Shown: positions 1 through 28,000 of the stretch, in pieces
Position numbering within the stretch: position 1 is the first letter of the stretch
How the letters are laid out: each line of letters begins with the position of its first letter
Origin: a virus
Taxonomy: Duplodnaviria; Heunggongvirae; Uroviricota; Caudoviricetes
Length of the DNA stretch: 30,301 nucleotides
IMG/VR virus record: IMGVR_UViG_2563366891_000011
Coordinates: 1 to 30,301 of that record
Reading direction: 5' to 3' (one strand)
Translations under genes and position numbers: made by a program
Notes under the pieces: model-generated
Databases searched by the model: none
Told to the model about the DNA's origin: nothing
Seen by the model: the letters and a program-made list of their open reading frames with translations, nothing else

Positions 1-1164
1 TTACGCCTTCTTTATATCCTCCATAATTCCACAGTGGGACATATTTGGGACATTATCACCAAAAATGTCGTCTATTTTCCTTGCATGCTCTGTCAAATGA
101 TTAGGCGCAAGGTGAGCATACCTACGAACCATTTCTATGGACTCCCATCCGCCCATTTCCTGAAGCACAGATAATGGGACGCCTGACTGGATCAGCCAGC
201 TTGCCCAGGTGTGTCTGAGGTCATGGAAACGGAAATCTTCAATTCCTGCACGACGACAAGCTGATAGCCATGATGTCTTGCTGTCGATGCGCATCTTCCT
301 GACCGCAGGCGTTGATGTTCCATCTGCTCGCTTAGCCGCCTTGGTATGTACAAACACCCATTTGTGATGCTTGCCTATTTGATCACGCAACACTTTACAG
401 GCGGTATCGTTCAGCGCCACACCAATGGCGCGGTTTGATTTGCTCTCTTCTGGATTCACCCAGGCAACTCGTCGCTGCATGTCGATTTGTTGCCATTCCA
501 GATTTATGATGTTCGACTTTCTCAGACCAGTTGCCAGCGCAAACTTGACGACAGATTTCAGTGGTTCGGGGCACTCATCAATAAGGCGTTTTGCTTCCTC
601 CTTTTCCAGCCATCTGACTCGCTTGTTTCTGACCGCTGGTATCTTGATGACAGGCGCTTTTTCCAGCCACTTCCAGTCGCGTTCTGCAGCACGGAGAATG
701 GCCTTTATCATGGCAAGATGCTTTGCCTTTGTCTGAGTTGATACTGGCTTTGGTTCATAAACAGGCGGTTCTTTACCTTTCCTGATGGCGGCCTGAACTT
801 TCTGTTTCCATATTTCTTTCGTCTTTCTGTTATGCATTCTGCTTACAGCAGAGTAAATCTTTGCCTCCGAGATATCTTTAAGCCTTATACCCTCAAAATG
901 TTCAAGCCAGAACTCAATCCGGCTTTTATCTGAATCGAGAGATTTTTTATCAGCTTTTTCCTCAAGCCATCTTAGGCAGGCCTCTTCAAAAGTGACATCA
1001 GGTAAATCCCCTAGCTTTTCTACTCGCCAGAGTTCTGCTTTTCGCTTGTCGTGCAACTCCTGAGCTTGCCGCTTGTCCTTTGTGCCAAGAGATTCCTTAA
1101 TTCGTTTCCCGCCCGGGAGCGAATACGAGGCATACCATATTTCATTTCTGCGGAAGAGTGACAT
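1..1164 (-). CDS. int: Tyrosine-type site-specific integrase (phage integrase family; IntS-like)
   Basis: 387 aa ORF with ATG at 1162-1164 preceded by GAGGA RBS; C-terminal [10 protein letters not shown] motif typical of tyrosine recombinases; N-terminus resembles CPS-53 IntS as I recall it. Window starts at the stop codon. Confidence 0.92.
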
Positions 1165-10996: not shown

Positions 10997-11992
10997 GTGA
11001 CCGTGAGAGCACTACTGACCCCTGAAATTGCCCCGCGTATGGGGATCGTATTGTTCAGACCAGGTTCAGAGCTGATGCCCTTGTTTATGCAGGGGCGTGT
11101 CCTGCTGGAGCCTGAGCCGGAACGTTATTCATCTTTCGCCAGTGGTGCCGTTCCGGCGGCATCACAACCGCTGGCGGATGATCCTGCCGTTCGGGCCGTG
11201 TTCCGCAATGAGGCAGTGATCCGTCGTGCTGGTGGCGTGGAATGTCTTGAAAGCTGGTTACTTCGTGAAAAAGGCTGCCAGTGGCCTCATTCCGACTGGC
11301 ACAGCGAGAACATGACAACAATGCGACACGCTCCGGGCGCAATCCGTCTGTGCTGGCACTGCGATAACCAGCTGCGCGATCAGTTCACGGAACGGCTGGA
11401 ATCAATGGCAACGGATAACTGTGCCCGCTGGGTGTTGTCTGTTGTGCGTCGGGATCTCGGTTTTGATGACAGTCATGTTGTGACAATGCCGGAACTGTGC
11501 TGGTGGCTGATTCGTAATGATCTGGCGGATGCCTTACCGGAAAGTGCAGCCCGTAAGGCACTGAGATTACCGAAGCCTGTTGTGCCGTCTGTTACCCGGG
11601 AAAGTGACCTTGTGCCTTCGGTTCCTGCCACCAGCATCATCCAGGATAAGGCGAAAAAGGTGCTGGCGCTGAAAGTGGATCCGGAGTCGCCGGAGTCTTT
11701 TATGTTACGCCCAAAACGTCACCGCTGGGTTAATGAAAAGTACACGCGCTGGGTTAAGACGCAGCCGTGCGCATGTTGTGGAAAACCTGCTGATGATCCC
11801 CACCACCTGATAGGCCACGGTCAGGGGGGAATGGGTACAAAAGCGCATGACCTTTTTGTGTTGCCTTTGTGCAGAAAGCATCACGACGAGCTGCATGCGG
11901 ATACCGTGGCATTTGAAGAGAAGTATGGCTCCCAGCTGGAGCTGATATTTCGTTTTATCGATCGCGCACTGGCGATTGGTGTGCTGGCCTGA
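10997..11992 (+). CDS. DUF968-family protein with C-terminal HNH-like Cys/His motif (YdfU-like)
   Basis: 331 aa; C-terminal [18 protein letters not shown]...[10 protein letters not shown] is a zinc-finger/HNH-type signature; start codon ambiguous (GTG at 10997 or 11003). Confidence 0.7.
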
Positions 11993-12009
11993 TTTTGTGG
12001 AGAAAGTTA

Positions 12010-12393
12010 ATGCGTGATATTCAGATGGTTCTTGAACGTTGGGGAGCGTGGGCGGCTAATAATCATGAAGATGTGACCTGGTCGTCCATTGCCGCCGGTT
12101 TTAAGGGATTAATTCCTTCAAAAGTAAAATCTCGCCCGCAATGTTGTGACGATGACGCGATGATCATTTGCGGGTGCATGGCCCGTCTGAAAAAGAACAA
12201 CAGCGATTTACACGATTTATTAGTAGATTATTATGTATGTGGTATGACATTCATGTCACTGGCAAGTAAGCATTGCTGCTCGGATGGTTATATCGGGAAA
12301 AGGTTACAGAAGGCTGAGGGCATAATTGAAGGGATGTTAATGGCATTAGATATCCGGTTAGATATGGATATCGTTGCTAATAATTCTAATTGA
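12010..12393 (+). CDS. Q: Late-gene antitermination protein Q (phage 82/21-type short Q)
   Basis: 127 aa from ATG 12010 (GGAG RBS 7 nt upstream); Cys-rich motif ([16 protein letters not shown]); canonical position just upstream of the lysis cassette. Confidence 0.75.
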
Positions 12394-12530
12394 TATGCAA
12401 TTGTTTACTAAAAGTTATTAAAAATGGGGCGTGGAAACGCCCCCAAAATAAAGGGTAATATATAACAGAAGGTTTATATAGTAAGAAGCAAGGTAGTGCT
12501 TCTAAAGGAAGTGGCTTGAGGGCTCCACTT
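12394..12530 (+). promoter_or_regulatory. Candidate late promoter (PR') / Q-utilisation region
   Basis: Inferred from position only (Q engages at a promoter next to its own gene); AT-rich with -35-like TTGATA at 12390-12395 and hairpin GGGGCG-TGGAAA-CGCCCC at 12426-12443; exact hexamers not resolved. Confidence 0.3.
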
Positions 12531-12570
12531 ATATGTTGCGGAGGCAAAGCCTCCCGCAACATATCTTTTT
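12531..12570 (+). terminator. Rho-independent terminator (candidate tR'-type terminator between PR' and IS200)
   Basis: 14-bp stem ATATGTTGCGGAGG / CCTCCCGCAACATAT with one bulge, loop CAAAG, followed by CTTTTT. Confidence 0.55.
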
Positions 12571-12713
12571 GTGCACAGAAAACCCCCAGCTAGGCTGGGG
12601 GTTCCGGAAAGCTTTCAGCTTTAAGCCAGTTATTAAAACCCCTTTTGATTTGTTAAAACACCTTGCGGTCTGGCAACTGCAAGTGTCAAACAAGAAATCA
12701 AAAGGGGGTCCCA

Positions 12714-13172
12714 ATGGGGAACGAAAAGAGCTTAGCGCACACCCGATGGAACTGTAAATATCACATAGTTTTTGCGCCAAAATACCGAAGACAGGTGTTC
12801 TACAGAGAGAAGCGTAGAGCAATAGGCAGTATTTTGAGAAAGCTGTGTGAGTGGAAAAGTGTACGGATTCTGGAAGCTGAATGCTGTGCAGATCATATCC
12901 ATATGCTTGTGGAGATCCCGCCCAAAATGAGCGTATCCGGCTTTATGGGATATCTGAAAGGGAAAAGCAGTCTGATGCTTTACGAGCAGTTTGGTGATTT
13001 GAAATTCAAATACAGGAACAGGGAGTTCTGGTGCAGAGGGTACTACGTCGATACGGTGGGTAAGAACACGGCGAAGATACAGGATTACATAAAGCACCAG
13101 CTTGAAGAGGATAAAATGGGAGAGCAGTTATCGATTCCCTATCCGGGCAGCCCGTTTACGGGCCGTAAGTAA
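12714..13172 (+). CDS. tnpA: IS200 transposase TnpA (Y1 HUH transposase)
   Basis: 152 aa; MGNEKSLAHTRWNCKYHIVFAPKYRRQVF and HIHMLVEIPPK (HUH) motifs typical of IS200 TnpA. Confidence 0.92.
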   Translation: MGNEKSLAHTRWNCKYHIVFAPKYRRQVFYREKRRAIGSILRKLCEWKSVRILEAECCADHIHMLVEIPPKMSVSGFMGYLKGKSSLMLYEQFGDLKFKYRNREFWCRGYYVDTVGKNTAKIQDYIKHQLEEDKMGEQLSIPYPGSPFTGRK

Positions 13173-13247
13173 CGAAGTTGGATGCAAATGTCAGATCGTG
13201 TGCGCCTGTTAGGGCGCGGCTGGTAAGAGAGCCTTATAGGCGCATTT

Positions 13248-13285
13248 GAAAAACCTCCGGCTATGCCGGAGGATATTTATTTCGT
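13248..13285 (-). terminator. GC-rich hairpin with minus-strand T-tract: porin terminator and/or IS200 right-end subterminal hairpin
   Basis: CCTCCGGC-TAT-GCCGGAGG (13254-13272) followed on the minus strand by TTTTTCAAAT; similar in form to the IS200 left-end hairpin. Confidence 0.45.
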
Positions 13286-13293
13286 AAGTCAGA

Positions 13294-14376
13294 TTAGAAC
13301 TGATAAACCAGACCTACAGCGACGATGTCGTCGGTATCAATACCAGCTGTTTTGGTAAACTTACTATCGTCAATTAAGTTGATTTTGTAATCAACAAAAG
13401 TGGACATGTTTTTATTAAAGTAGTAAGTAGCACCGACATCGACATACTTGACTAAGTCTCGGTCACCATGAACACCAAGGTCTTTACCTTTTGACTGAAG
13501 GTAAGCAACAGATGGACGCAGACCGAAGTCAAACTGATATTGTGCTACTGCTTCAAAGTTTTGTGCTTTGTTTGCAATATGGTTATTACCAAAAACGGTC
13601 ATATTCTGAGTTTCAGAATATGTGGTAGCCAGATAGATATTGTTCGCATCATATTTCAGGCCTGCAGCCCATACTTCCGCATTTTTGCCGGAGGCATTGA
13701 ATTTGCTCTTACCATAGGCGACCTGACCGTCAGTGCGATCTGATTTAGCATAGGTTGCACCCACGCCGAATCCTTCATACTCATAAGTAGTGGAGAAACC
13801 GAAACCATCACCATTGGCTTCAGTTACGTCAGTGCGGTCATTTTTACCCTGATACTGAGCAGCAAAGTTCAGGCCATCGACCAGACCAAAGAAGTCGTTG
13901 TTACGATAAGTTGCAACACCAGTAGTGCGACCAGTCATGAACACATCTGTTTGGGTCCAGGTATCACCACCGAATTCTGGCAGGACGTCAGTCCACGCAC
14001 CGATGTCGTATGCTACACCGTAGTTACGGCCGTAATCGATTGAGCCGTAATCACCAAATTTCAGGCCTGCAAATGCAAGACGGGTTTTGTCTTTGGAAGA
14101 ACCTTGAGATTCAGCACGGTTGCCTTTGAATTCATATTCCCACTGACCGAAACCAGTCAGTTGATCGTTGATTTGGGTTTCACCTTTGAAGCCAAGACGG
14201 GCATAAGTAGTATCACCATCATCTGCATCATTAGAGGAGAAGTAGTGCTTGGCATTAACTTTCCCGTATAGATCCAGCTTGTTACTGTCTTTATTATAAA
14301 TTTCAGCTGCCTGAGCAGACATCGCCATCAGTACTGATGCAGCTACAGCAGAAATTGCCACTGTTAATTTTTTCAT
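13294..14376 (-). CDS. nmpC: OmpC/OmpF-family outer-membrane porin, prophage-encoded (NmpC/Lc-like)
   Basis: 360 aa; signal peptide [30 protein letters not shown]-terminal VYQF, general-porin sequence character; sits antisense between Q and the lysis genes as nmpC does in DLP12. Confidence 0.9.
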
Positions 14377-14803
14377 TGTACGCCCTTTTTTTTGAACTAT
14401 TATTAAAAAATGATGTCACTGCGCGATAAATATTCATCTAATCAATGCGATTATTTCAAGATGTAAGTTTTAGTTTCTCATTTAATTTGTGAAGTAGATC
14501 TCTATTTTTATCTAAACCTTTTCTATCTAATCCTATTCATGGCTCTTGTTTGAACGAAAATAAATCTATTAGCTAATTTATATTAATGGCACTTATTTAT
14601 AAGAGATCTATAATTCTTTAGCTTAATTTAAACAAACTAAAAATAACATCGGAAATTATTCATTGGTTATTTGTTGAAGTTTTCTTATGTATTTGTGGTG
14701 GTGTTTTGAACACTCGGTGGCATTCTCACAAATATCATTTAGTAGTTTACGTACGTAAAAAATTGGTTATGCTGTTAAGAGTGGTTACTTCGTCACACAG
14801 CTT

Positions 14804-14836
14804 AAACCCGCCGTCGAGCGGGTTTTTCCATTTTTT
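14804..14836 (+). terminator. Rho-independent terminator-like hairpin upstream of the holin gene
   Basis: AACCCGC-CGTCGA-GCGGGTT followed by TTTCCATTTTTT. Confidence 0.5.
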
Positions 14837-14965
14837 GAGTCTCGATATTAGCTGATAACCCAATACCTGAGTTATTCACTGACTCCGAATCTGTTACGTT
14901 TCTGCCTTTATTGCGATACGTAGTATCCCCTTAATTTACACCCGCTTTGTCTGCGAGGTGGGGTT

Positions 14966-15181
14966 ATGAAATCCATGGATAAGTTAACAACGGGTGTCGC
15001 CTATGGCACCTCAGCAGGTAGTGCCGGATACTGGTTTTTACAGCTGCTAGATAAAGTCACGCCCTCACAGTGGGCGGCAATTGGAGTGCTGGGTAGCCTG
15101 GTATTTGGCCTGCTGACGTACCTGACAAACCTTTATTTCAAGATTAAAGAAGATAAGCGCAAGGCTGCGAGAGGTGGATAA
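14966..15181 (+). CDS. S: Class II holin (phage 21 S21-type pinholin) with dual start (M1/M4)
   Basis: 71 aa, two TMDs, charged C-terminus; close resemblance to S21 as I recall; GAGGTGGGG RBS. Confidence 0.85.
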
Positions 15182-15678
15182 TGCCTCCATCATTACGAAA
15201 AGCTGTTGCTGCTGCTATTGGTGGCGGGGCTATTGCTATAGCATCTGTGTTAATCACTGGCCCAAGTGGTAACGATGGTCTGGAAGGTGTGAGACATAAT
15301 CCTTACAAAGACATAGTTGGTGTATGGACTGTATGTTACGGGCATACAGGAAAAGACATCATTCCCGGTAAAACGTATACCGAAGCAGAGTGCAAAGCCC
15401 TCCTGAATAAAGACCTTGCCACTGTCGCCAGACAAATTAACCCGTACATCAAAGTCGATATACCGGAAACAACGCGCGGCGCTCTTTACTCGTTCGTCTA
15501 CAACGTGGGTGCTGGCAATTTCAGAACATCGACGCTTCTTCGCAAAATCAACCAGGGCGATATCAAAGGCGCATGTGACCAGCTACGTCGCTGGACATAC
15601 GCTGGCGGTAAGCAATGGAAAGGGCTGATGACTCGCCGTGAGATTGAGCGTGAAGTCTGTTTGTGGGGGCAGCAATGA
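15181..15678 (+). CDS. R: SAR-endolysin (T4-lysozyme-like muramidase with N-terminal signal-anchor-release domain)
   Basis: 165 aa; Gly/Ala-rich N-terminal SAR segment ([18 protein letters not shown]); TAATG overlap with the holin stop. Confidence 0.88.
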
Positions 15679-16112
15679 GCAGGTTAACCGCGATTATCTC
15701 CGCTCTGGTTATCTGCATCATCGTCTGTCTGTCATGGGCTGTTAATCATTACCGTGATAACGCCATTACCTATAAAGAACAGCGCGATAAAGCCACGTAC
15801 ATCATCGCTGACATGCAGAAGCGTCAACGTGACGTAGCAGAACTCGATGCCAGATATACAAAGGAGCTTGCTGATGCTAACGCGACTATCGAAAGTCTCC
15901 GTGCTGATGTTTCTGCTGGGCGTAAGCGCCTGCAAGTCGCCGCCACCTGTGCAAAGTCAACGACCGGAGCCAGCGGCATGGGCGATGGAGAAAGCCCAGG
16001 ACTTACAGCAGATGCTGAACTCAATTATTACCGTCTCCGAAGTGGAATCGACAAGATAACCGCGCAGGTTAACTACCTGCAGGAATACATCAGGACGCAA
16101 TGCCTGAATTAA
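15675..16112 (+). CDS. Rz: Rz-type i-spanin
   Basis: 145 aa from ATG 15675 (ATGA overlap with the endolysin); N-terminal TMD then coiled-coil-like periplasmic domain. Confidence 0.8.
15874..16059 (+). CDS. Rz1: Rz1-type o-spanin lipoprotein embedded in the +1 frame of Rz
   Basis: 61 aa from ATG 15874 (AAGGAG 7 nt upstream); signal peptide with lipobox-like VSAC, Pro-rich mature region. Confidence 0.65.
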
Positions 16113-24384: not shown

Positions 24385-25410
24385 ATGTCGATGTACACAA
24401 CCGCCCAGCTGCTGGCGGCAAATGAGAAGAAATTTAAGTTTGATCCGCTGTTTCTGCGTCTCTTTTTCCGTGAGAGCTATCCCTTCACCACGGAGAAAGT
24501 CTATCTCTCACAAATTCCGGGACTGGTAAACATGGCGCTGTACGTTTCGCCGATTGTTTCCGGTGAGGTTATCCGCTCCCGTGGCGGCTCCACCTCTGAA
24601 TTTACGCCGGGATATGTCAAGCCGAAGCATGAGGTGAATCCGCAGATGACCCTGCGTCGCCTGCCGGATGAAGATCCGCAGAATCTGGCGGACCCGGCTT
24701 ACCGCCGCCGTCGCATCATCATGCAGAACATGCGAGACGAAGAGCTGGCCATTGCTCAGGTCGAAGAGATGCAGGCCGTTTCTGCCGTGCTTAAGGGCAA
24801 ATACACCATGACCGGTGAAGCCTTCGATCCGGTTGAAGTGGATATGGGCCGCAGTGCGGCGAACAACATCACACAGTCCGGTGGTACGGAGTGGAGCAAG
24901 CGTGACAAGTCCACGTATGACCCGACCGACGATATCGAAGCCTATGCGCTGAACGCCAGCGGCGTGGTGAATATCATCGTGTTTGATCCGAAAGGCTGGG
25001 CGCTGTTCCGTTCCTTCAAAGCCGTCAAGGAGAAGCTGGATACCCGTCGCGGCTCTAATTCCGAGCTGGAGACAGCGGTAAAAGACCTGGGCGAAGCGGT
25101 GTCCTATAAGGGGATGTATGGCGATACGGCGATCGTCGTGTATTCCGGACAGTACGTGGAAAACGACGTCAAAAAGAACTTCCTTCCGGACAACACGATG
25201 GTGCTGGGGAACACTCAGGCACGCGGTCTGCGCACCTATGGCTGCATTCAGGATGCGGACGCACAGCGCGAAGGTATTAACGCTTCTGCCCGCTACCCGA
25301 AAAACTGGGTGACCACCGGCGATCCGGCGCGTGAGTTCACCATGATTCAGTCAGCACCGCTGATGCTGCTGGCTGACCCTGATGCGTTCGTGTCCGTACA
25401 ACTGGCGTAA
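24385..25410 (+). CDS. E: Major capsid protein E
   Basis: 341 aa, lambda E-like. Confidence 0.95.
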   Translation: MSMYTTAQLLAANEKKFKFDPLFLRLFFRESYPFTTEKVYLSQIPGLVNMALYVSPIVSGEVIRSRGGSTSEFTPGYVKPKHEVNPQMTLRRLPDEDPQNLADPAYRRRRIIMQNMRDEELAIAQVEEMQAVSAVLKGKYTMTGEAFDPVEVDMGRSAANNITQSGGTEWSKRDKSTYDPTDDIEAYALNASGVVNIIVFDPKGWALFRSFKAVKEKLDTRRGSNSELETAVKDLGEAVSYKGMYGDTAIVVYSGQYVENDVKKNFLPDNTMVLGNTQARGLRTYGCIQDADAQREGINASARYPKNWVTTGDPAREFTMIQSAPLMLLADPDAFVSVQLA

Positions 25411-25412
25411 TC

Positions 25413-25440
25413 ATGGCCCTTCGGGGCCATTTTCTCTTTG
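25413..25440 (+). terminator. Rho-independent terminator-like hairpin just after E
   Basis: ATGGCCC-TTCG-GGGCCAT followed by TTTCTCTTT. Confidence 0.5.
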
Positions 25441-25451
25441 TGGAGGAGTCC

Positions 25452-25847
25452 ATGACGAAAGATGAACTGATTGCCCGTCTTCAGGTGCTGGGTGAGCAAC
25501 TGAACCGTGATGTCAGCCTGACGGGGACGAAAGAAGAACTGGTGCTCCGTGTGGCAGAGCTGGAAGAGGAGCTTGATGACACGGATGACGCTGCCGGTCA
25601 GGACACATCTGTCAGCCCGGAAAATGCGCTGACCGGACATGAAAATGAGGTTGTATCAGCGCAGCCGGATACCGTGACTGATACGGCTGATCTGGTCACG
25701 GTTGTGGCACTGGTGACGCTGCATACTGATGCACTTCACGCCACGCGGGATGAGGCTGTGGCATTTGTGCTGCCGGGAACGGCGTTCCGTGTCTCTGCCG
25801 GTGTGGCAGCTGAAATGACAGAACGTGGCCTGGCCAGAATGCAATAA
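25452..25847 (+). CDS. FI: DNA-packaging / head assembly protein FI
   Basis: 132 aa from ATG 25452 (GGAGGAG RBS). Confidence 0.85.
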   Translation: MTKDELIARLQVLGEQLNRDVSLTGTKEELVLRVAELEEELDDTDDAAGQDTSVSPENALTGHENEVVSAQPDTVTDTADLVTVVALVTLHTDALHATRDEAVAFVLPGTAFRVSAGVAAEMTERGLARMQ

Positions 25848-25858
25848 CGGGAGGCGCT

Positions 25859-26212
25859 GTGGCTGATTTCGATAACCTGTTCGATGCTGCCATTGCCCGC
25901 GCCGATGAAACGATACGCGGGTACATGGGAACGTCAGCCACCATGACATCCGGTGAGCAGTCCGGCGCTGTGATACGTGGTGTTTTTGATGACCCTGAAA
26001 ATATCAGCTATGCCGGACAGGGCGTGCGCGTTGAAGGCTCCAGCCCGTCCCTGTTTGTCCGGACTGATGATGTGCGGCAACTGCGGCGTGGAGACACGCT
26101 GACCATCGGTGAGGAAAACTTCTGGATAGACCGGGTATCGCCGGATGATGGCGGAAGCTGTCATCTCTGGCTTGGGCGTGGCGTTCCGCCTGCCGTTAAC
26201 CGTCGCCGTTGA
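25859..26212 (+). CDS. FII: Head-tail connector protein FII
   Basis: 117 aa, GTG start. Confidence 0.85.
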   Translation: MADFDNLFDAAIARADETIRGYMGTSATMTSGEQSGAVIRGVFDDPENISYAGQGVRVEGSSPSLFVRTDDVRQLRRGDTLTIGEENFWIDRVSPDDGGSCHLWLGRGVPPAVNRRR

Positions 26213-26293
26213 AAGGGGGATGTATGGCCATAAAAGGTCTTGAGCAGGCCGTTGAAAGGGGGATGTATGGCCATACAGGGTCTTGAGCAGGCC
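26208..26293. repeat. 43-bp tandem direct duplication (copy 1 26208-26250, copy 2 26251-26293; 2 mismatches) spanning the FII stop, the Z RBS and the first Z codons
   Basis: Read directly: GTTGAAAGGGGGATGTATGGCCATA(AAA/CAG)GGTCTTGAGCAGGCC twice; flanked by the short direct repeat GCCGTTGAAA. Confidence 0.9.
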
Positions 26294-26845
26294 GTTGAAA
26301 ACCTCAGCCGTATCAGCAAAACGGCGGTTCCCGGTGCCGCCGCAATGGCCATTAACCGCGTTGCGTCATCCGCGATATCGCAGTCGGCGTCACAGGTTGC
26401 CCGTGAGACAAAGGTACGCCGGAAACTGGTAAAGGAAAGGGCCAGGCTGAAAAGGGCCACGGTCAAAAATCCGCAGGCCAGAATCAAAGTTAACCGGGGG
26501 GATTTGCCCGTAATCAAGCTGGGTAATGCGCGGGTTGTCCTGTCCCGCCGCAGGCGTCGTAAAAAGGGGCAGCGTTCATCCCTGAAAGGTGGCGGCAGCG
26601 TGCTTGTGGTGGGTAACCGTCGTATTCCCGGCGCGTTTATTCAGCAACTGAAAAATGGCCGGTGGCATGTTATGCAGCGTGTGGCCGGGAAAAACCGTTA
26701 CCCCATTGATGTGGTGAAAATCCCGATGGCGGTGCCGCTGACCACGGCGTTTAAACAGAATATTGAACGGATACGGCGTGAACGTCTTCCGAAAGAGCTG
26801 GGCTATGCGCTGCAGCATCAACTGAGAATGGTAATAAAGCGATGA
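26267..26845 (+). CDS. Z: Tail assembly protein Z
   Basis: 192 aa from the ATG in copy 2 of the duplication; the ATG in copy 1 (26224) opens only a 20-codon out-of-frame ORF. Confidence 0.82.
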   Translation: MAIQGLEQAVENLSRISKTAVPGAAAMAINRVASSAISQSASQVARETKVRRKLVKERARLKRATVKNPQARIKVNRGDLPVIKLGNARVVLSRRRRRKKGQRSSLKGGGSVLVVGNRRIPGAFIQQLKNGRWHVMQRVAGKNRYPIDVVKIPMAVPLTTAFKQNIERIRRERLPKELGYALQHQLRMVIKR

Positions 26846-27237
26846 AACATACTGAACTCCGTGCAGCCGTACTGGATGCACTGGAGAAGCATGACACCGG
26901 GGCGACGCTTTTTGATGGTCGCCCCGCTGTTTTTGATGAGGAAGATTTTCCGGCAATTGCCGTTTATCTCACCGGCGCTGAATACACGGGCGAAGAGCTG
27001 GACAGCGATACCTGGCAGGCGGAGCTGCATATTGAAGTTTTCCTGCCTGCTCAGGTGCCGGATTCAGAGCTGGATTCGTGGATGGAGTCCCGGATTTATC
27101 CGGTGATGAGCGATATCCCGGCACTGTCAGATTTGATCACCAGTATGGTGGCCAGTGGCTATGACTACCGGCGCGACGATGATGCGGGCCTGTGGAGTTC
27201 AGCCGATCTGACTTATGTCATTACCTATGAAATGTGA
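26842..27237 (+). CDS. U: Tail terminator protein U
   Basis: 131 aa, ATGA overlap with Z. Confidence 0.9.
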
Positions 27238-27244
27238 GGACGCT

Positions 27245-27985
27245 ATGCCTGTACCAAATCCTGTAATGCCGGTGAAAGGTGCCGGGACCACCCTGTGGGT
27301 TTATAAGGGGAGCGGTGACCCTTATGCGAACCCGCTTTCAGACGTTGACTGGTCGCGTCTGGCAAAAGTTAAAGACCTGACGCCCGGCGAACTGACCGCT
27401 GAGTCCTATGACGACAGCTATCTCGATGATGAAGATGCAGACTGGACTGCGACCGGGCAGGGGCAGAAATCTGCCGGAGATACCAGCTTCACGCTGGCGT
27501 GGATGCCCGGAGAGCAGGGGCAGCAGGCGCTGCTGGCGTGGTTTAATGAAGGTGATACCCGTGCCTATAAAATCCGCTTCCCGAACGGCACGGTCGATGT
27601 GTTCCGTGGCTGGGTCAGCAGCATCGGTAAGGCGGTGACGGCAAAGGAAGTGATCACCCGTACGGTGAAGGTCACCAATGTGGGTCGTCCGTCAATGGCA
27701 GAAGAACACAGTACGGTGACGGCGGCAACCGGTATGACCGTGACGCCAGCCAGCGCTTCCGTAGTGAAAGGGAAGAGCACCACGCTGACCGTGGCATTCC
27801 AGCCGGAAGGCGCAACCGACAAGAGCTTCCGTGCGGTGTCAGCGGATAAAACAAAAGCTACCGTGTCGGTCAGTGGTATGACCATCACCGTGAACGGCGT
27901 TGCTGCAGGCAAGGTCAACATTCCGGTCGTATCCGGTAATGGTGAGTTTGCTGCGGTTGCAGAAATTACCGTCACCGCCAGTTAA
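27245..27985 (+). CDS. V: Major tail tube protein V
   Basis: 246 aa from ATG 27245. Confidence 0.9.
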
Positions 27986-28000
27986 TCCGGAGAGTCAGCG

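Follow-up and report, generated by a model that had tools for sequence, protein, structure and literature searches.

The window analysed here, the whole stretch of 30,301 nucleotides, was identified from its gene content and from profile searches as a DLP12-type lambdoid prophage. The genes framing the locus of interest are:

1-1164, minus strand: integrase
12010-12393, plus strand: Q antiterminator gene of the QuuD type (127 aa; PF06530, E 6.7e-54)
13294-14376, minus strand: intact phage porin gene (NmpC/Lc/OmpD-like, 360 aa; Porin_1, E 1.9e-151), annotated as porin in the relatives with an empty site
14966-15181, plus strand: holin S, the first late gene (PF04971, E 2e-35)
from 15181: lysozyme, with the terminase, portal and head genes further to the right

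Two relatives served for comparison. The plaque-forming phage PhiR49_1 aligned to the first 25 kb of the window with 99.5% identity over 87% of the length, and the prophage at argU of E. coli TO6 was 100% identical to positions 11000-15700 except for a gap of 712 bp. The TO6 prophage is degraded, with an IS1 in the early region and frameshifted portal and decoration genes; in addition, its capsid gene is truncated and its lysis cassette is present twice (24677-27989 of its locus). The active phage PhiR49_1 is the nearer relative of the window prophage.

The gap in the TO6 prophage corresponds to an insertion sequence between the Q and porin genes, with the following parts:

12570-13281, plus strand: complete IS200C, 712 bp, delimited by the empty-site comparison, the invariant ends of ten other copies and the published numbering
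12581-12603, plus strand: IS left-end hairpin (nt 12-34; fold -18.7 kcal/mol), the first stem of the Rfam STnc490 match
12638-12707, plus strand: SD-sequestering stem of the 5'UTR (Rfam structure 12642-12704; nt 69-138 in PMC4513863)
12714-13172, plus strand: tnpA, encoding a Y1 (HUH) transposase of 152 aa (Y1_Tnp PF01797, E 3.8e-38)
13254-13272: IS right-end hairpin, terminator-like on both strands in the scan (folds -15.9 and -15.6 kcal/mol)

The original prediction of a complete IS200-type element with an intact tnpA was borne out, as the family was confirmed and tnpA is full length: the match covers positions 2-121 of the 121 in the PF01797 profile, and the protein is identical, with zero differences, to WP_000526135.1, the IS200C transposase of other E. 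coli copies. Alignment with solved Y1 transposases showed that the HUH motif (H61-I-H63) is present and that Y110, in RGYY, corresponds to the catalytic tyrosine. Likewise, the proposed stem-loop sequestering the ribosome-binding site in the 5'UTR was recovered by the Rfam model STnc490 (RF01405) at 12581-12704 with 146 bits versus a gathering score of 56 and the full model covered, its positions agreeing with those of Ellis et al., who located the terminator hairpin of IS200 at nt 12-34, assigned nt 69-138 to the 5'UTR stem and described the left-end hairpin as a bidirectional terminator shielding tnpA (PMC4513863). The antisense RNA art200 is encoded opposite the 12638-12707 stem. The STnc490 model lies on the tnpA-sense strand, yet Ellis et al. 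2015 call art200 antisense to the tnpA 5'UTR (PMC4513863); it is apparently the sense 5'UTR of tnpA that the model describes.

The termini, GTGCAC... on the left and ...ATATTTATT on the right, form no terminal inverted repeats, and the subterminal hairpins are alike at both ends, the right one (AACCCCCAGCTAGGCTGGGGGTT) resembling the left one (AACCTCCGGCTATGCCGGAGGAT). Similar hairpins at the two ends had been anticipated, and the true pair is 12581-12603 and 13254-13272. One other E. coli copy was 100% identical over 721 nt, and near-identical copies occupy 13,683 places among the 5,426 complete E. coli genomes, 4,304 of which carry them, at a median of 2 places each; the flanks were unrelated among the 69 distinct ones examined. 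The element is thus an ordinary, complete IS200C of the IS200 group of the IS200/IS605 family, with nothing unusual in the element itself. IS200 of Salmonella and IS200C of E. coli share the single Y1 HUH tnpA, the lack of terminal inverted repeats, the subterminal hairpins, the hairpin at nt 12-34, the SD stem at nt 69-138 and insertion without target duplication, with 707 bp quoted for the Salmonella element versus 712 bp here. From the known IS200C copies the present one differs in its insertion site only, which is new.

Comparing the locus with relatives that lack the IS, as had been proposed with the original prediction, yielded a clean result: in both E. coli TO6 and PhiR49_1, the occupied site differs from the empty one by a plain 712-bp insertion between 12568 and 13282, with an ambiguity of TTT. 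The empty site reads ...GCAACATATCTTTTT|CGTAAGTCAG..., its flanks being 100% identical in TO6 and PhiR49_1, and the insertion falls at CTTTTT|CGTAAG without a target-site duplication, the 3-nt homopolymer being the sole ambiguity. Ten other E. coli copies start with GTGCACAG and are invariant up to ...GGAGGATATTTATT, after which the next base varies. Based on the published hairpin numbering (PMC4513863), nt 1 of the IS is position 12570, and the invariant ends together with this numbering resolve the ambiguity of the empty site, giving 12570-13281 for the element. Directly to its left lies its integration target:

12531-12570, plus strand: phage hairpin (15 bp with one bulge; 12531-12564) with C and five T behind it, found in the empty site as well

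This hairpin is terminator-shaped on the plus strand (fold -22 kcal/mol, z -5.2). It had been taken, with its CTTTTT, for the left-end hairpin of the IS, and its presence in the empty site identifies it as phage DNA; the span of 12531-13293 first given to the element was therefore too wide, taking in 39 bp of phage DNA before the true left end and 12 bp beyond the right one. The claim that the IS ends within about 10 bp of the porin stop was close to the mark, the measured distance to the stop codon (13294-13296) being 12 nt. The phage's own plus-strand hairpin and T-run stand unchanged before the IS, and would do so even if rightward transcription crossed it.

The empty-site construct was found at a coverage of at least 80% in 2,182 genomes. 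The IS occurred at this site in none of the 5,426 complete E. coli genomes, where no record spanned both junctions and the best coverage of 11000-15700 was 85%, and the exact 35-mer of the left junction had no match in viral or metagenome contig collections.

The position of the element behind a terminator-shaped hairpin follows a general pattern. Searching other Enterobacterales, with one genome per species, for the exact first 31 nt of the IS gave 67 loci, 58 of which had at least 60 nt of upstream flank; all 58 sites are different. In 57 of these 58, a GC-rich hairpin plus T-tract ends exactly at the IS, with tnpA co-directional with the terminator. When, more strictly, a perfect stem of 6 bp or longer and four or more T among the last six positions were required, 50 of the 58 sites qualified, compared with 0.17% of all positions in the same loci. 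Across 69 distinct sites, TT directly preceded GTGCAC in every case, the last four bases before the IS being TTTT (45), TATT (15), TCTT (4), TGTT (3) or ATTT (2), and the GC stem stopped 5-10 nt upstream of the IS. The target in the window, 12531-12570, has the same shape as 57 of the 58 other IS200C sites and fits the rule. Furthermore, the right end of the IS shares the form of the target, a GC-rich hairpin followed 5-10 nt on by T(T/A)TT, here the hairpin and ATATTTATT. Three E. coli loci carry IS200C in tandem, the second copy sitting at the right end of the first, which supports the idea that the right-end hairpin with its T-rich tail can act as a target. The association of this family with terminators is already known, a 2026 survey having found upstream terminator-like sequences most over-represented for IS200/IS605 among the ISs (PMC13548323); the resemblance between target and right end is what we infer here. 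A GAAAA(A) stretch precedes both IS hairpins (12578-12582 and 13248-13253), and these stretches could pair with the T-rich cleavage sites, by analogy with IS608.

Such a terminator T-tract rule serves as a simple predictor of IS200C insertion sites. It also explains why IS200C rarely does harm, as the host terminator is kept intact and tnpA is hidden behind a terminator. Group IIC introns are likewise mobile elements integrating just past the stem-loop of Rho-independent terminators; they are RNA-guided retroelements, whereas IS200 is a single-strand DNA transposon with a Y1 transposase.

Read from the porin gene, the insertion interrupts the 3'UTR, which is now distributed over two segments:

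13282-13293, minus strand: first 12 nt of the porin 3'UTR, still joined to the porin gene
12412-12569, minus strand: distal ~155 nt of the porin 3'UTR (IpeX region), cut from the porin gene by the IS
12426-12443, minus strand: intrinsic-terminator-like hairpin, the predicted end of the porin/IpeX transcript (GGGGCGTTTCCACGCCCC then ATTTTTAATA in the scan; fold -13.8 kcal/mol)

The last of these had been described as a terminator hairpin following Q. The hairpin is indeed there, and its T-run lies on the minus strand, so that it is not a rightward terminator. In the empty state, the gap between the convergent Q and porin genes measures 188 bp, and the reconstructed porin 3'UTR, counted from the stop codon as far as the T-run, has ~165-170 nt. 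This is presumably where IpeX lies, a placement that follows a review. The gap is identical to the intergenic region of K-12 DLP12 at 178 of its 188 positions (~95%) and shows 93.9% identity to the PA-2 record J02580 downstream of lc. In DLP12/PA-2, IpeX forms part of the porin transcript with a length of 167 nt (PMC12197685), and it represses ompC and ompF (PMC5069750). The region in the window resembles that of DLP12/PA-2 in position, between the porin stop and the minus-strand terminator, in its length of ~167 nt and in its ~95% identity to K-12; here, unlike in those phages, it is split by the IS after nt 12. The 36 records matched by the segment 12394-12570 were all of phages that have the porin as well. 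IpeX has no Rfam family, and weak Rfam matches to sau-19 and to group II intron D1-D4 (E 0.17-0.19) were set aside as chance.

With the IS inserted after nt 12 of the porin 3'UTR, leftward transcription from the porin gene meets the right-end hairpin, followed on the minus strand by TTTTTCAAAT, 22-40 nt past the porin stop codon. Minus-strand T-runs within the IS accompany both the right end (13272-13254, TTTTT) and the left end (12603-12581, TTTTCTG). The minus strand of 13249-13282 partially matched the last 34 positions of the Yersinia sRNA Ysr202 (28.5 bits, E 7e-6), which suggests that a Yersinia transcript ends at the right-end hairpin of IS1541/IS200 read in antisense. Read on the minus strand, the right-end hairpin is, by its predicted fold and T-run, a strong terminator-like structure at which the porin mRNA would end, ~45 nt after the stop codon, and the IS probably cuts IpeX off from the porin transcript. 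Read-through, or leftward transcription out of the IS such as read-through of art200, could still give an IpeX-like RNA.

It is unlikely, in our assessment, that the element is a neutral passenger leaving late expression and porin/IpeX output unchanged, be it through a weak minus-strand terminator, an IpeX promoter of its own or IpeX being silent in the strain. IS200 copies do follow terminators across enterobacterial genomes with apparently no harm, the strength of the right-end terminator is a predicted one, and a longer precursor reportedly has to be processed to yield IpeX (PMC12197685), all of which would agree with such neutrality. Against it stand the 712 bp and two hairpins with minus-strand T-runs that now separate the porin stop from the body of IpeX, and the published function of the left-end hairpin as a bidirectional terminator (PMC4513863).

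A porin transcript uncoupled from IpeX, the reading that we prefer, has a parallel and a contrast in the IS5 within nmpC of K-12 DLP12 (also in phage 434B), where an IS likewise sits in the same porin moron and in the gap between Q and the lysis genes: the IS5 in K-12 nmpC breaks the porin coding sequence, whereas the IS200 here spares the porin and breaks its 3'UTR. If the uncoupling is real, synthesis of the phage porin would no longer be accompanied by the repressor of the host porins that is otherwise transcribed with it, and lysogens with and without the IS would form a natural pair for testing the effect of IpeX on OmpC/OmpF and on the permeability of the outer membrane. Tentatively, we propose that IS200C picks intrinsic terminators as single-stranded DNA mimics of its own right end and that this has possibly given rise here to a natural porin allele with disrupted ipeX. 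As far as could be checked, neither this pseudo-right-end mechanism nor the consequence for IpeX has been described before.

To locate the late promoter relative to the IS, we compared the Q region with that of Stx phages. QuuD is 83% identical to Q of the Stx2 phage P13374 over aa 1-120, after which the two diverge. Positions 14743-14827 align with the PR' block of Sakai Sp5, which begins 15 nt before the Q stop codon in Sakai, with 78.6% identity over 84 nt. Only one copy of this block exists in the window. It lies downstream of the porin gene as well as of the IS and comprises:

14746-14773, plus strand: PR' homologue with -35 TTTACG (14746-14751), a 16-nt spacer and -10 TATGCT (14768-14773), 186 nt before the holin gene
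14804-14836, plus strand: hairpin with a T-rich tail, spanning ~+25 to ~+55 relative to the predicted late start and conserved in Stx phages and SfII

In Sakai Sp5, the block has the same -35 TTTACG, overlapping the Q stop, and a 16-nt spacer; the -10 hexamer differs, being TATCAT in Sakai versus TATGCT in the window. The Sakai -10 puts the transcription start at position 1046 of the locus examined (L084), and the end of a hairpin GCCAGCC-N9-GGCTGGC with six T follows at a distance of 258 nt. The same interval of 258 nt separates the PR' start found by dRNA-seq from the tR' found by Term-seq in the work of Sy et al., who described them as "closely associated with Q" (PMC7547250). A constant offset is required to bring the coordinates of that paper into line with the present Sakai record, and it was checked internally by the -10 hexamer and the 258-nt spacing. 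Placed by this homology, PR' in the window would start the late transcript at ~14780.

No terminator-like site other than 14804-14836 precedes the holin gene. The first hairpin and T-run (1069-1096 of the Sakai locus) are kept in DLP12-type, SfII and Stx phages, and the Sakai tR' was mapped instead at +258; candidate roles of the 14804-14836 hairpin are termination, pausing or Q loading. A further sigma-70-like promoter (ATGGCA, 17 nt, TATAAT) lies on the plus strand at 14586-14614, ~160 nt upstream of the PR' block, in an AT-rich region that is also expected to hold the minus-strand porin promoter.

Compared with the PR'-StxS-tR' module of Stx phages (Sakai Sp5 and Sp15), the window thus shares a Q of 83% identity and a homologous promoter block with its first hairpin. 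In the Stx phages this block abuts Q and tR' follows at +258, whereas in the window ~2.35 kb separate it from Q, or 3.06 kb when the IS is counted, and the first hairpin alone stands before the holin gene. The last codons and the stop of an ancestral Q reappear at 14743-14758, and QuuD has 127 aa compared with 144 aa for Q of Stx phages. In the simplest history, the ancestral Q gene would have received the porin/ipeX moron in its 3' end, with PR' displaced by ~2.3 kb. The same order is found in Shigella phage SfII, where Q is followed by two minus-strand ORFs (morons), the PR' block and S, and the K-12 reporter for the DLP12 lysis operon took its regulatory region from the DNA adjoining essD. 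The solved Q21 structures were too distant for the Q-binding element to be transferred from them (E 4e-8 over 81 aa).

As first noted, the IS is physically located between Q and the lysis genes. Since it sits inside the moron, upstream of PR', it would nevertheless fall outside the late transcription unit. The original prediction had late transcription starting next to Q and crossing the IS, which disagrees with both the single PR' block at 14743-14827 and the promoter scan, where no sigma-70-like promoter was found on the plus strand of 12394-12531, between Q and the IS. The suggested decrease of late expression, or its stronger dependence on Q, through the IS is probably wrong as well, the late start being placed downstream of the element.

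We consider it very unlikely that PR' directly follows Q with 12531-12570 as tR', such that late RNA would cross the IS and then the porin gene in antisense and the IS would lower expression or raise its Q-dependence: lambda, 21, 82 and the Stx phages do have PR' directly after Q, the 12531-12564 hairpin with its five T is terminator-shaped on the plus strand and -10-like hexamers (TAATAT, TATAAC, TATAGT) occur at 12456-12482, yet 12394-12531 holds no -35/-10 pair on the plus strand, the homologue of the PR' mapped in the closest Q relatives is present in a single copy elsewhere, the end of Stx-Q homology at residue 120 and the ancestral Q end at 14743-14758 are as expected for a moron inserted between Q and PR', the restriction of 12394-12570 to porin-carrying phages is as expected of a porin 3'UTR, and a Q-modified polymerase ignores terminators, so that little effect would be expected even then. 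A specific candidate of this kind (-10 TAATAT at 12456-12461, pause-like TATAGT at 12477-12482, tR' at 12531-12570) was dropped once the Stx PR' homologue had been placed at 14743-14827. The IS5 in phage 434B was uninformative on whether late transcription tolerates an IS, as it also lies upstream of the PR' block.

The overall reading that we favour, and regard as probable, is an IS200C in the porin 3'UTR that spares the late genes and uncouples IpeX. The IS (12570-13281) would have integrated without duplication into the T-run of the terminator-shaped phage hairpin, within the convergent Q/porin gap and 12 nt past the porin stop inside the porin 3'UTR. By separating Q from PR', the moron carrying porin and ipeX would have left the promoter at ~14746-14780, just upstream of the holin gene, and Q-modified late transcription would begin downstream of the IS; with such a start, expression of the lysis and head genes would be unaffected by the element. 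Leftward porin mRNA would end at the right-end hairpin, 22-45 nt after the porin stop, and the remaining ~155 nt of IpeX would be lost from the output of the porin promoter. For annotation, these results imply that the IS ends have to be kept apart from the phage terminator and that the late promoter of DLP12-type phages should not be taken to abut Q.

Work on IS608 and ISDra2 would predict that the tnpA-sense strand serves on the lagging-strand template. The quuD gene of K-12 lies on the plus strand of the clockwise replichore and, if the source strain is syntenic with K-12, the tnpA-sense strand of the present IS would lie on the lagging-strand template.
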